Notes: generated by a model from the sequence alone, not told the origin. Positions 24,357 through 29,729 are shown, counted from the first letter of the stretch. The stretch: 32,000 nucleotides of DNA from Candidatus Jordarchaeales archaeon (GCA_038889235.1 JAWAHN010000001.1:524499-556498); one strand, 5' to 3'. Numbers and translations: made by a program.

Positions 24357-25609
24357 CTACCACCGCCTCTCCTTCTCATTGAACTCCCTGCTATACTTTC
24401 GGAGTTCCTCCATTGACCAGACCCAGGAGTGTTCTTTCTCGACGTCCACGAACACTAACCTGTCCTCACATGAGAAGCATGGGTCAATTGACGCTAACGC
24501 CACAGGGATGTCTGCGATGTAGCAGCCTTTTAAGAGCTCTGCGACTGAGAGTATGTTCGCCATGGTCGGCGTCCTAATCTTGACCCTGTAAGGTTTATCG
24601 GTGCCATTGCTCTTCACATAGTAAACTAGCTCACCTCTCTGGGCTTCAAACCTAGAGAAGGCTTCACCCTCAGCCACACGCCGGATGAGCTTCTCGGGCA
24701 TGATGTTCCCGTCTTTAGGCATATGGTCGAGGCACCATCGGATGATCTTAATGCTTTCGAGTGTTTCGAGCACGCGCACAACAGCCCTACCGAAAGAGTC
24801 GCAAGAGTCCCACGTTACAACGTTAAACTCTGCCTCATCGTATTTCAAGTGCGGATCGTCTTTACGTACATCTCGCTCAACCCCAGCTGCACGAATGGTA
24901 GGGCCAACGGCTCCCAACTTTACGCCAGTCACAGGATCGAGAATGCCTACATCTTCAGTCCTCTTCCTGATAGTAGTCTCTTCAAGACACAATTTCTCGT
25001 AGTATTTCGTCCTCTCTTCGAGGTAGTCGAGACCTTTCCTGATTTTGTCAGCGAGCTCAGGAGTTATGTCCCTTCTAACACCGCCGATGATATTCATAGC
25101 ATAGTTGACCCTATTACCTGAAATAGCCTCAAGCAGATCCATAACAACTTCTCTATCACGCCACACGTACATGAACAGTGTCTCAAAACCAATTTCTAAT
25201 CCTAGAGCGCCAAGCCACAGCAGGTGGCTGTGGATACGCTCAAGCTCGCTCACTATGGTCCTGATAAACTTAGCTTTCTCACTAACCTCTATTCCGCCAG
25301 CCTCTTCAACAGCCAGCGAAAAGCAAGTCGTATTCGCGCTCCCCAAGGCGACGGGCACACATAGAACTTACGACATTTGCCTTAGAGGAGTTGCGCGTTC
25401 GAACATATACCGCAAACCCTTTCTACCAAGAATATTCCTTGTATGTAGGTCCTGTTTTCCAGCGCCTTTTCTATCCCCCTGTGAACATACCCGATCCTAG
25501 GTTTCACGTCTACGACTGTTTCTCCCTCAACAAATATCTGGAACAGTTCAGGCTCGTGTAGAGCAGGGTGTTGTGGGCCAATGGGTACTATTACGGGTGC
25601 CGTTTTAAT
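24357..25609 (-). CDS. Group 4 [NiFe]-hydrogenase large subunit (NuoD/EchE-like), two exons: 25609-25392 and 25332-24357, 397 aa after splicing
   Basis: Exon 1 reads PIGPQHPALHEP...GYVHRGIEK...ERVCGICSNA (L1 motif). Exon 2 reads TTCF...ELERIHSHL...DPCFSCEDR (L2 motif). Probable ATT start at 25609 after GGAGGTG. Confidence 0.88.
25333..25391 (-). other. 59-nt bulge-helix-bulge (tRNA-type) intron in the hydrogenase large-subunit gene
   Basis: mRNA reads CGCG-CA^A-CUCCUCUAAGGC...GCCUUGGGGAG-CGCG-AA^U. Standard cuts join CA+U into the His codon and restore the frame. Confidence 0.85.
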
Positions 25610-25650
25610 GCACCTCCCTTCTATATCTTGTTTTCACGTCTTTTGTTTTG

Positions 25651-25670
25651 TTTATAAAATGTTTTCGCCT
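25651..25670 (-). promoter_or_regulatory. BRE/TATA-like promoter (AGGCGAAAACATTTTATAAA) upstream of the large-subunit gene
   Basis: Purine-rich BRE followed by TTTATAAA about 40 nt upstream of the ATT start. Confidence 0.55.
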
Positions 25671-26350
25671 TGTTTCTATAGAAAAGTCTTCGAACGTCAA
25701 CACGTTTTAAGTTTCCAACAGCGCTCTCTACGGCTTACTACCGTGACGAAGCTGCCTAAGGTCTACTATTTTTACCACTCACCTTTTCCTAACAGTTCTT
25801 AGTGCTACAGGCAGGTGCACTATTTCCTTCCGTTATCATTTGATTGCGCATTCATGTAGTGCATTCACACCACATAGCGAATTTAGGAGTATGAGCGCCG
25901 GCTTAATTCCATGTACGCTGAAGTTGGAGACTAGGGATTTCAATAAAGGGCTGGAAACCTTGTGAAAGAGTTAACGTCCGTGACCACGAGAAAGACTAAT
26001 AAAGCCGGTGGACGTCAGATCTTGATTAACTGTGCCGAACAGCGTCGAAGTTCAGCACTCGTGGGGACACGCATGGTGTCTCTTAAAAACAGGATTTTGG
26101 TTTTGAAAAGTGCAAGTTGTGTGAAGCGTCTTTATTGTTAAAAACCCCTTTTTTAATGTACTGCGTTTTAGTTAAGATTCAATAAGTTAGGATGCTATAA
26201 AAGTAAAGGGCAGAGTAGTGTTATTTTTTCTCAGGCTGTTGAAAAAGGGGGAGGGGTAGTGTTCTGCAGGGATGCCAGGGGGGCTTTTGGGAGGGAAGAA
26301 TTTATGTTTTTCTGACAGGGAGGGGGTCAGCTAGTGCTGTAGGATGGTTT

Positions 26351-26830
26351 CTACTCTTGTTGTGCCGGCTGCCAGTCCTTTCTAAGTGGGTATACGCCCT
26401 CCGGCCAGTCTTCGGGTAGTACGAGGCGTTCGAGGCTTGGGTGTCCTTCGAAAACTACTCCTAGGAGGTCGTGGACCTCGCGTTCGTAGAGGTTGCTTGA
26501 CGGCAGGATGTCTGTTATTGTTTCGAGCTTAGGGTTGGACTTTGGCACCATCGTCCTCACCATCACTGCTGTTTGAGGCTCCTTCGACCTCCACAAGTGG
26601 AATATTACCTCTATGTTTTCCCCGAGGTCGACGCCTGTTATCGTGGAGACGTGCCATAGGTCCCAGTTGTCTCTCATATACTCTATGACTTTCCTGTGCA
26701 CTCCAGGTTTTACTCTCAAGTGAATTCTCCTCGACCTTTTAATGTAGGCTTCCTCAAGTTGCGGCCCGAAGGCCGCTTTAAGTTCCTCGAGGAGTTGTTC
26801 CTCGCTCTTGGCCTCCTTCTTCTTGCCCAT
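26351..26830 (-). CDS. NuoC/EchD-like subunit
   Basis: [39 protein letters not shown]. Confidence 0.92.
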
Positions 26831-26842
26831 CTTCTTCCCCCT

Positions 26843-27277
26843 CTACAGTTTTTGTATTTTTGCGAGAAGTTTCGCTACGCCGTCAATGATAGCCTCTGGC
26901 TTAGGCGGACACCCTGGCACGTACACGTCAACTGGGACTGCCGTGTCTATTCCCCCCTCGACCCCATAGCATCCCTTGAACACGCCTCCCGTGCATGCAC
27001 AGTTTCCAACCGCCATCACAAACTTGGGGTCGGGAACTTGCTCGTAGAGCTTCCTAAACCTGGCTTTCATTTGTTTAGTGATAGGCCCGGTGCAGACGAG
27101 GACGTCGGCGTGCCTTGGACTCCCCATTAGGAGAACACCGAAACGTTCGACATCGAATCGTGGCATTAGTGCTGCTAAGATTTCGATGTCACAAGCGTTG
27201 CATCCGCCGGTGTTCAAGTGGAGTATCCATGGCGACTTTAGCCTCGCCCATTTTATGACTTTGTCGAGGAGTCCCAT
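26843..27277 (-). CDS. NuoB/EchC-like small Fe-S subunit
   Basis: GGCNACDIE, SPRHAD, GNCACTGG, PGCPPKPE. Confidence 0.93.
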   Translation of the reverse strand: MGLLDKVIKWARLKSPWILHLNTGGCNACDIEILAALMPRFDVERFGVLLMGSPRHADVLVCTGPITKQMKARFRKLYEQVPDPKFVMAVGNCACTGGVFKGCYGVEGGIDTAVPVDVYVPGCPPKPEAIIDGVAKLLAKIQKL

Positions 27278-27338
27278 TGTACCACTTCCAAGACGTTTAG
27301 CGTTTAAACCATCCTGGCAGTTGGAGATTAGAAGAGTT

Positions 27339-27440
27339 CTCCCTTTTTTACTTTTCCGTTACCAGCGCAGCGCTCCCCCGACTCCCGGAAGGGGGTAAGT
27401 GATGACGAGGCCTTGCGGCGAAAAAGTAAAAAGGAGGGAG
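27339..27440. repeat. Imperfect ~20-bp inverted repeat in the nuoB/nuoA divergent intergenic region
   Basis: CTCCCTTTTTTACTTTTCCG (27339-27358) versus CGAAAAAGTAAAAAGGAGGGAG (27419-27440). Confidence 0.6.
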
Positions 27441-27499
27441 GTTTCTATTTTGTGCCGGCTCCCCCTTTTGGGCGCCTGTGTCCTCGCGGAGGTGAAGGC

Positions 27500-27817
27500 A
27501 TGTCTGGCTTACTGGCCTTGGGACTTGCAGTTCTAGTGAGTTTCCTTGTGGCATGTGCAATATACCTTACAGGGAAGGCTATTGGTGCTAAAGGCAAGGT
27601 GACGCCGGACAAGCTAGATCCCTATGCCTGTGGTGAGACTTTCCCCCCTGAGAAGTTTCAGTACAGGGTGCACCTAGTTTACTACGCGATATTCTTCACG
27701 CTGCTCGAAACGGCAGGAGTAATAGTGTTCACGTCCTCTTTCAGTAGTCCGCTATACGCCTTGATATACGTGGTGTTCCTAATGGTGGCAGCGCTTCTCG
27801 TCCTCTACAAGAGGTAG
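27500..27817 (+). CDS. NuoA-like membrane subunit
   Basis: Three TM helices, KLDPYACGE, YYAIFFTLLE. ATG at 27500 after GGAGGTGA. Confidence 0.88.
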   Translation: MSGLLALGLAVLVSFLVACAIYLTGKAIGAKGKVTPDKLDPYACGETFPPEKFQYRVHLVYYAIFFTLLETAGVIVFTSSFSSPLYALIYVVFLMVAALLVLYKR

Positions 27818-28030
27818 ATGAGAGGAGCAGAGTAGGAGCAGACCTGTCCCCCTCTGGGCGACACATCATGTCCCATTTTTTCACATAATTACTTCAACGA
27901 TCCCTGTTATCATGCCGTTTTCTTGCCTATGCCTGTTTTCGAAAAATTATTTAGAAGGGTAGATTCCAGCTTTTTTAAGCGTCATTGGAGTGTGATTTGG
28001 TTGAAGTTCCGTTTTGAACTTGAAGGTGAA

Positions 28031-28453
28031 ATGATTGAAGTAGAGATGCCTGAAAATCTTTACTACCACCCAGATCACTGCTGGGCTAAAGTGGAGGATG
28101 GAAAGGTTAGAGTGGGCTTCGACGACTTTGGACAGGCTACAGCTGGGCAAATACTTTTCATCAGACTTAAACCTGTCGGAAAAGAGATTAAGCAAAACGA
28201 GACGTTCGGAACAATAGAGACTGGGAAGTGGGTTGGACCCTTAAGGGCGCCTGTCTCTGGAACAATAATTGAAGTGAACCCAGAGATTAAAACGAATCCG
28301 TCACTAGTAAACAAGGACCCGTACGGAAGGGGTTGGCTAATACTCGTCAACCCATCAAACTTAGAAGAGGAGCTTAAAAGGCTTATCACAGGCGATGCCA
28401 TAAAAGAGTGGATAGAAAGGGACATTAAGGAAAAGTTGAAGAAAGCTAAGTAG
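28031..28453 (+). CDS. gcvH: Second GcvH-like lipoyl-carrier protein
   Basis: YYHPDHCWA, GFDDFGQ, GTIETGKWVG (lipoyl Lys), APVSG, NKDPYGRGWL. ATG at 28031. Confidence 0.88.
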   Translation: MIEVEMPENLYYHPDHCWAKVEDGKVRVGFDDFGQATAGQILFIRLKPVGKEIKQNETFGTIETGKWVGPLRAPVSGTIIEVNPEIKTNPSLVNKDPYGRGWLILVNPSNLEEELKRLITGDAIKEWIERDIKEKLKKAK

Positions 28454-28672
28454 CATCTCCTAGTTCTATTTTTTCCTCTGCTGCAATTTCTCCCTCGATT
28501 GGGTGTTCAAAGAGAATTGGCACCTTCCTAAGTTTCATAGAGAGCGGAGGAAAGAGGCGCATAGTTTTGGCGTTGGAGAGCTTCATTTAAGCGACATGAA
28601 TTATTAATTTTACTTATAATTTTTCAAAAAGTTTTTTAGTTGCGAAGTGGGAATGTTGCTGAGAGCAAGGGG

Positions 28673-29729
28673 GTGAAGGAGTTAGAATACAGGATGACTA
28701 AGGTTGTAAAGCTTCACGGTTGAGCTTGTAAGCTCCCGCAGGCAGATTTGAAGAAGCTTCTAGAGAAGGCGGGGGTCACAACTCCGAGCAACATTCTAAG
28801 TGGGCCCGACGAGGATGCAGCCGTTATACGTGTCCGGGATGACATGGTGCTCGTGAAAACGATAGACTTCGTTACGCCGAGCGTCGACGAGGGATATGTT
28901 CAGGGGAAGATTGCAGCCGCTAACGCGACAAGCGACGTGTACAACACAGCCACGAGGCGGGCTGTGTGCATAAGCGAAGGGTGCAACCGAGATAGTTGGC
29001 TTCTTGGCGGTCTTAGGCGTGCCCACAGACATGCCTGTGGAAATAGCAGTAGATATTCTTCGGGGGATCAAAGACTACTTAAGTGAGGTCGGAGGGGCAT
29101 TGGTTGGCGGGCACACGATATTTAACCCGTGGCCGCTGTCTGGGGGCGAAGTTACTGCTATAGCCCATCCAAGTCAGATAGTCTACCAGAGAGGTGCTAG
29201 GGCCGGGGATGTGTTGGTTCTCACAAAGCCACTGGGGACCCAGCCGGCAATGGCTGTCTATAGAAGTGTGAAGGAGCCGGAGACGCGCGAACTAGTGCTA
29301 AGCGTGCTTTCAGAGAAAGAGGCGGAGGAATTAGTTAGGAAGGCGATAGGATTCATGACGCAGTCAAACAAACCTGTTGCTGAAGCTATGAGGGAGGTTA
29401 AGCCTAATGCTGCAACCGACGTAACAGGGTTTGGGCTTGTGGGACATGCTGGAAACATGGCTAGGGAGAGCGGGGTTGACGTGGAGATACAATTTTTACC
29501 AGTTATGAGGGGTGCTGTTCAAGTCTCAGAGCTCTTTGGCTACGGGTTAGAAAGAGGGGAAGCTGCGGAGACCTCTGGTGGAATCTTGGCGTCGCTGCCT
29601 AAGGAGAAAGTTGACGAGTTCCTGGGCGAGTTGAAAAAACGCGGAGTTACAGCTTACATCGTTGGTGAGATTAAGCGCGGCGAGGGGAAAGTTACTGTGA
29701 AGCGTGACGTCGAAATGATCGAGGTGTAG
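28673..29729 (+). CDS. selD: Selenophosphate synthetase, a selenoprotein (UGA=Sec at 28721-28723), two exons: 28673-28942 and 28974-29729, 341 aa after splicing
   Basis: VKLHG-U-ACKLP matches archaeal SelD. Also EDAAV, TIDFVTP, GKIAAANATSDVY|AKG, GGHT, LTKPLGT, ATDVTGFGLVGH, ETSGG. Start position (GTG 28673) inferred. Confidence 0.92.
28943..28973 (+). other. 31-nt bulge-helix-bulge intron in selD
   Basis: mRNA reads GUGU-AC^A-ACACAGCC-loop-GGCUGUGU-GCAU-AA^G. Removal restores the frame and SDVYAKG. Confidence 0.78.

Follow-up and report, generated by a model that had tools for sequence, protein, structure and literature searches.

In a stretch of 32,000 nucleotides (nt) of Candidatus Jordarchaeales archaeon (GCA_038889235.1, JAWAHN010000001.1:524499-556498; hereafter the window, with positions counted from its start), two protein-coding genes are interrupted by short insertions, one of 59 nt in the gene for a [NiFe]-hydrogenase large subunit (25333-25391, minus strand) and one of 31 nt in selD (28943-28973, plus strand). 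We conclude that both are very probably bulge-helix-bulge (tRNA-type) introns in pre-mRNA. A first-pass annotation of this DNA had described them as two insertions of common architecture in unrelated genes on opposite strands, with coordinates that proved to be exact. The shared features also held: both inserts start with A and end with AA, interrupt conserved motifs, and have a strong intron-side stem, a 4-base-pair (bp) helix and a weak or absent exon-side helix. The 4-bp helix lies between two 3-nt bulges on opposite strands and is formed by the four exonic bases that precede the last two exonic bases, which pair near the 3' end of the insert, while the strong helix closes the intron side. 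The inserts are not assembly errors, because the same sequence, with both inserts, is found in three other NCBI assemblies (same species, 99.8% identical) and in the DNA runs X1 and X2. Gene callers split both genes, giving two open reading frames per locus, and this agrees with the earlier suspicion of misannotation.

The hydrogenase gene was analysed from its two exons, both on the minus strand. Exon 1 (25392-25603) encodes GPQHPALHEP to ERVCGICSNA, plus the bases CA of a His codon, and aligns to residues 9-72 of the Pyrococcus furiosus protein MbhL (6CFW_L). Exon 2 (24357-25332, stop codon at 24357-24359) carries the C-terminal nickel ligands DPCFSC, and its best PDB match is the same MbhL chain (E 7e-65). 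By homology, the protein is a large subunit of the group 4 membrane-bound [NiFe] type, MbhL/NuoD-like. The reading frame breaks after ERVCGICSNA, where the upstream frame meets a TAA and the remaining protein is found in another frame. In the insert, identified by sequence and fold, the central helix is made of the exonic CGCG at 25397-25394 and the CGCG at 25338-25335. The 5' bulge is CAA (25393-25391) and the 3' bulge is AAU (25334-25332). The intron side is closed by CUCCUC/GGGGAG (6 bp) followed by AAGGC/GCCUU (5 bp), and the exon side has a helix of only 3 bp, beyond an internal loop.

The crenarchaeal cbf5 intron is cleaved between the second and third residues of the bulge (PMC2738675), and this rule was applied here. 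In the hydrogenase transcript, it places the cuts after 25392 and after 25333, so that exon 1 ends with ...GCG CA at 25392, exon 2 starts with U ACG at 25332, and the join (...GCG CA|U ACG...) closes a His codon split as CA|U and rebuilds the nickel-site motif CGICSNAH. The spliced sequence reads CGICSNAHTTCFSLAVEE, and congeneric genes without the interruption have CGICSNAHQCTF. At the protein level, the predicted junction is CGICSNA-H-TTCFSLAVEE, and the uninterrupted relatives have CGICSNAH. No gaps were needed when the two exons, joined through the rebuilt His, were aligned with MbhL, S68 falling on residue 72 and C12 on residue 78. Among the nickel motifs of group 4 hydrogenases, the N-terminal CxxCxxxH (here RVCGICSNAH) is complete only after splicing, and DPCxxC (DPCFSC) lies within exon 2.

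One contig from an RNA library lacks this insert. In the metatranscriptome run X4, a contig of 2,059 nt matches positions 24400-25332 and then 25392-25594, skipping exactly 25333-25391, and the 59 nt are retained in the DNA runs X1 and X2 and in the three NCBI assemblies. Because the differences between this contig and the window are 18 synonymous and four non-synonymous, the hydrogenase gene is under selection. In the RNA run X8, there was no contig matching the stretch.

The selD gene starts with the ATG at 28694 and has a selenocysteine codon (TGA) at 28721-28723. Its exon 1 (28694-28942, plus strand) ends with ...ANATSDVY, its exon 2 (28974-29729, stop codon at 29727-29729) starts with AKGATEIVGF, and the frame is broken between SDVY and AKGATEIVGF. 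The exonic GUGU at 28937-28940 pairs with GCAU at 28968-28971, with two G-U pairs, to form the central helix; the bulges are ACA (28941-28943) and AAG, the third base of the latter being the G at 28974. The intron-side stem (28944-28951 with 28960-28967) has 8 bp, ACACAGCC/GGCUGUGU, and is followed by GCAU and the terminal AA of the intron; there is no exon-side helix. By the same cleavage rule, exon 1 would end with ...GUG UAC, cut after 28942, and exon 2 would start with GCG AAG at 28974. The predicted junction is SDVY|AKGATE, to be compared with NDLY|AKGATD in the uninterrupted SelD of other Asgard archaea.

In each of the 10 genomes with a readable junction, which belong to two families of the order, the selD intron occupies the same site, with a length of 30, 31 or 34 nt. 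It was absent from 14 more distant SelD loci, namely those of four Asgard genomes and ten other archaeal loci. While the flanks GUGUAY|A and GCAYAA|GC are invariant, the stem varies from ACACAGCC/GGCUGUGU to GCGUAGCC/GGCUACGC and AUGUAAAUC/GAUUUACAU, with pairing preserved in 120 of 120 cells and with seven of the eight stem pairs changed on both sides; none of 500 shuffles matched the observed score. The introns of 30 nt are in frame and end in TAA. As judged from these comparisons, the ancestor of the order Jordarchaeales already had the selD intron. The Jordarchaeales SelD entries in a large protein collection are all exon-2-only calls of 232-250 residues, and no spliced product was found in this collection, the close relatives being exon-2-only calls as well.

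Both introns are flanked by short direct repeats, which the first-pass annotation had taken as a hint of duplication during intron gain. The repeats are present, but this interpretation was not supported, as CGCG is self-complementary and constitutes the central helix of the hydrogenase intron, and the GTGTACA/GTGTGCA pair of selD is not kept in the other family. The repeats are by-products of the bulge-helix-bulge motif.

In exon 2 of selD, a low-depth RNA contig of run X4 (record 10) seems to skip 72 in-frame bases of conserved coding sequence (29023-29094), beside a CCACAG/CUGUGG hairpin. We did not retain this skip as a real event; it is probably an artefact of assembly or template switching.

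The distribution of the hydrogenase intron was also examined. It is not present in four close relatives (G001-G004), and an 88%-identical relative, represented by three Logan contigs, carries it with a length of 57 nt. In the latter, the helices are kept, with one U-G pair replaced by C-G, and the loop has diverged in sequence and length; the differences in exon 1, judged by eye, are synonymous. This intron is young, a recent gain within the genus. In the sister species G003, a different insertion, of 50 nt, was observed in the same gene after GPQHPALH (L003, G003:C2, oriented approximately 1295-1345). Folded by eye, it shows inner and outer helices of 9 and 6 bp, respectively, a central helix of 4 bp (UUGC/GCAA) and the two bulges ACA and AAG, and the predicted junction is ALH|EPE.

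The beginning of the hydrogenase gene is unusual. No ATG, GTG or TTG precedes the conserved GPQHP motif (25595-25620, minus strand), and where the relatives have ATG there is an ACG (25601-25603), nine bases past the ribosome-binding site GGGAGGTG. This ACG is also found in the 88%-identical relative, where the downstream changes are synonymous. Either translation begins non-canonically, or the ACG itself is altered in the RNA. Upstream, a spacer of approximately 750 nt free of open reading frames (25604-26350, minus strand) separates the gene from that of the 30-kDa subunit, a distance of approximately 65 nt in relatives. The spacer is unique in the genome, is not part of either intron, and has a diverged version in the 88%-identical relative. 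Rfam searches of the spacer gave chance-level matches only, and no RNA contig covered positions 25639-26169. A large bulge-helix-bulge intron spanning the spacer, which would provide the start codon, was searched for, and nothing convincing was found.

The genome encodes the enzymes that such introns would need. There are two EndA paralogs: one has the catalytic Tyr/His/Lys and the crenarchaeal loop lysine, best resembles the catalytic subunits of Aeropyrum pernix and Pyrobaculum aerophilum, and has A. pernix 3P1Z_B as its best PDB match; the other is without the catalytic His. Their genes are located at C1:1056164-1056754 and C3:444282-444869. The pair suggests a crenarchaeal-type heterotetramer of two subunits, one catalytic and one structural. 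Enzymes of this type accept relaxed motifs at any position (PMC3241643, PMC5829648). RtcB is also encoded (600 bits). The relaxed-specificity EndA proposed in the first-pass annotation is in line with the genome content, which has an EndA of the broad-specificity two-subunit type together with RtcB. In the mechanism that we propose, the transcript would fold so that the end of exon 1 pairs with the 3' end of the intron, forming the 4-bp helix flanked by 3-nt bulges on opposite strands. The EndA heterotetramer would then cut after the second base of each bulge, and RtcB would join the exons, so that only the spliced mRNAs would encode the complete hydrogenase large subunit, with its CGICSNAH nickel site, and the complete SelD. 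We infer that the hydrogenase and selD mRNAs are processed by EndA and RtcB, and that selD is spliced in vivo.

Several observations weigh against this interpretation. The RNA support consists of one assembled contig, and no raw split reads were seen. The strain of the contig is 2.4% different from that of the window, with no DNA run from the same sample, which would allow for a precise intron-less allele, a concern tempered by the fact that the window strain and the 88%-identical relative alike carry the intron. Splicing of the selD transcript was not observed; an RNA contig there ends precisely at 28942 and leaves 30 bases unplaced, which amounts to no more than a hint. Both introns have a weak or missing exon-side helix, which makes the motif a relaxed one and not the full canonical form; the two-subunit EndA tolerates motifs of this relaxed kind (PMC5829648). 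Finally, the lack of an ATG, GTG or TTG start and the unexplained 750-nt upstream spacer leave some doubt about the expression of the hydrogenase gene.

The anomalous start with its 750-nt upstream insertion, as well as the divergent strain without paired DNA, would also fit pseudogenes or decaying genes, with the inserts as disabling lesions and the RNA contig derived from a strain whose DNA lacks the 59 nt. We consider this very unlikely. Lesions would not account for a selD break at one site across the order with a covarying stem, and the hydrogenase gene shows the ratio of 18 synonymous to four non-synonymous substitutions between strains, exon 1 changes that by eye are synonymous in the 88%-identical relative, and helices conserved while the loop drifts. 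Moreover, one would not expect a random 59-nt insert to fold as a bulge-helix-bulge in which cutting by the rule restores a His codon split in two.

Removal from the RNA would be unnecessary if programmed frameshifting or translational bypassing carried the ribosome over the inserts. In gene 60 of phage T4, bypassing is promoted by hairpins near stop codons, and the inserts likewise combine a stop codon with a hairpin. No take-off codon with a matching landing codon is present here, however, and insert lengths of 30, 31, 34, 57 and 59 nt would demand different frame shifts; moreover, what is conserved corresponds precisely to the parts of the endonuclease motif, its 4-bp helix and its two 3-nt bulges, and the RNA contig is itself without the 59 nt. 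These points make ribosomal skipping a still more improbable explanation than gene decay. The same low probability is given to the idea that the genes are truly split and that two polypeptides assemble. The gene callers' two open reading frames per locus would fit it, but the 5' edge of selD exon 2 has neither a start codon nor a ribosome-binding site, the hydrogenase break falls inside the nickel-binding CxxCxxxH motif and through the His codon itself, and the covarying hairpin would be left without a reason. Introns of the bulge-helix-bulge type thus remain our preferred explanation for both inserts.

The first-pass annotation had further proposed that the genome holds many more such introns. 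The genome was scanned for the motif, with the condition that rule-based removal joined two coding frames, and with controls in which one cut site was moved by a base. Both known introns were recovered. For long introns (18-300 nt, with a 4-bp inner helix and 40 or more open codons to either side), the candidates were no more numerous than in the shifted-cut controls, and the noise was mostly due to candidates straddling gene boundaries. In the relaxed scan, introns of up to 40 nt gave 298 candidates at the correct cut sites against 259-279 in the controls. Where no Shine-Dalgarno start was nearby, the numbers were 189 against 152-167 for introns of up to 40 nt and 430 against 383-402 for those of up to 70 nt. 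This suggests approximately 30-40 real cases detectable by the scan, in roughly 2,000 genes.

Fifteen candidates were then compared with Pfam, and seven of these were confirmed or supported. For three, a single profile runs across the junction: kae1 (G000 C1:846098-846111; TsaD 2-61 | 64-264), pcm (G000 C1:804315-804345; PCMT 2-59 | 61-208) and a gene for a FAD-linked oxidase (G000 C3:304889-304915; 1-80 | 93-139). Pfam or motif evidence supports the introns of the other four, which are in cbf5, in the gene for an Fe-S/CCG protein 9 kb past the window (G000 C1:565583-565612), and in the genes for a large (G000 C2:318659-318687) and a small (G000 C2:145890-145918) subunit of the aconitase family. 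The cbf5 intron has 29 nt (G000 C1:835887-835915, L120) and interrupts the catalytic Asp codon after its first base (GHAGTL|DPKV); the other six have 14-31 nt. The start with A and end with AA are not universal, as the pcm intron has U at its start and AC at its end. A further six candidates were rejected as false, namely those in genes for GT2, RIO1/KH, 4-HFCP synthase, FeoA/FeoB, an SMC-like protein and a PEP-utilising enzyme, and two (an epimerase and an APH-like gene) fell in neither group. Together with those of the hydrogenase gene and selD, bulge-helix-bulge introns are therefore confirmed or supported in at least nine genes of the host genome. The expectation of further introns was met by these seven, but with a modest excess of the scan over its controls, and the description of the system as intron-rich was overstated, since the frame-controlled scan points to perhaps 1-2% of genes. 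The analysis gave no support to the control of Ni and Se enzymes that the first-pass annotation had raised as a possibility.

The host comes from a hot spring. On the basis of eukaryotic signature proteins and named relatives, it is a member of the Asgardarchaeota, order Jordarchaeales (= Freyarchaeia). The host contig, of 1.1 Mb and the same as that of the stretch, encodes a full-length actin (464 bits) and Vps28 (61 bits), and the nearest named homologs and one cluster member are assigned to Jordarchaeaceae, Jordarchaeales or Freyrarchaeum/Freyarchaeota. An Asgard host had already been put forward in the first-pass annotation, and these findings bear it out. A host among the Thermoproteota was at first read from the Bathyarchaeota SelD loci, which were the nearest named (approximately 50% identity) in a scan from which the close relatives were absent, and was ruled out by actin, Vps28 and the Jordarchaeales homologs.

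In this 95%-complete genome, ARAGORN detected 14 tRNA genes, and 11 of the 14 have introns, mostly at non-canonical positions; therefore, most tRNA genes of the host are probably too interrupted for detection. This is consistent with the 92-95% of tRNA genes interrupted in the Freyarchaeia/Jordarchaeales lineage (PMC11291895). Within the window, the minus strand holds a membrane-bound [NiFe]-hydrogenase operon with NuoB-like, NuoC-like, large-subunit and NuoH-like genes. The NuoB-like small subunit is at 26843-27277 (minus strand; Pfam Oxidored_q6) and the NuoC-like 30-kDa subunit at 26351-26830 (minus strand; Pfam Complex1_30kDa). A search of the whole window against Rfam gave no match at gathering scores.

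The closest known case is the cbf5 pre-mRNA intron of the Crenarchaeota (Aeropyrum, Sulfolobales, Desulfurococcales; PMC2738675 and earlier studies cited there), likewise a short bulge-helix-bulge intron in coding sequence with an often relaxed motif. The likeness extends to a hetero-oligomeric EndA that cuts between bulge bases two and three, to the interruption of a catalytic motif, and to gain and loss among relatives (PMC2738675), and the host's own cbf5 intron is at the position described for the Crenarchaeota. In contrast, the genes described herein have metabolic roles (hydrogenase, SelD) and not one in RNA modification, the host belongs to the Asgard archaea, and many genes in one genome are affected rather than a single gene. 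In that study no gene besides cbf5 was confirmed, the others being only predicted (PMC2738675), and in the searchable literature an endonuclease-type intron has been demonstrated for no archaeal protein-coding gene other than cbf5.

The same motif, presumed enzymes and lineage are found in archaeal tRNA and rRNA introns, including the intron-crowded tRNA genes of Freyarchaeia and Atabeyarchaeia (PMC11291895; bioRxiv 10.64898/2026.10.13.758758). Neither these two reports nor the Asgard selenoproteome papers mention introns in protein-coding genes. Unlike the substrates of those introns, the substrate here is mRNA, and the junction must also preserve the reading frame. A eukaryotic parallel can be drawn as well.

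In the cytoplasmic splicing of HAC1/XBP1 mRNA, Ire1 cuts and RtcB or Trl1 ligates. As in the system proposed here, a short mRNA intron is removed independently of the spliceosome, by an endonuclease acting at two stem-loop sites and an RNA ligase that belongs to the tRNA-splicing pathway. The two systems differ in nuclease and in recognition motif, and HAC1/XBP1 splicing is a regulated stress switch, whereas no regulation is shown here.

The scope of these findings is that of at least nine split genes in one Asgard genome, including a nickel enzyme cut through the codon of a metal-binding His and the selenoprotein SelD. With one intron dating back as far as the order itself and another varying between sister species, splicing of mRNA by the tRNA machinery appears to be a recurrent feature of a lineage near the eukaryotes, and not the oddity of one gene. 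For annotation, every Jordarchaeales SelD entry found is truncated at the intron, and in metabolic and selenoproteome surveys such genes appear broken. The finding also raises the question of how mRNA introns are tolerated by cells in which transcription and translation are coupled.

We consider it somewhat likelier than the opposite that the Jordarchaeales, and perhaps the other Asgard lineages whose tRNA genes are crowded with introns, have tens of ordinary protein-coding genes interrupted by endonuclease-type introns, which are gained and lost between congeneric species. If so, the tRNA-splicing machinery would be required to express core metabolic and translation genes, and ribosomes would have to be kept off the unspliced transcripts. 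Close relatives of eukaryotes would then possess a system of mRNA introns that is independent of the spliceosome.

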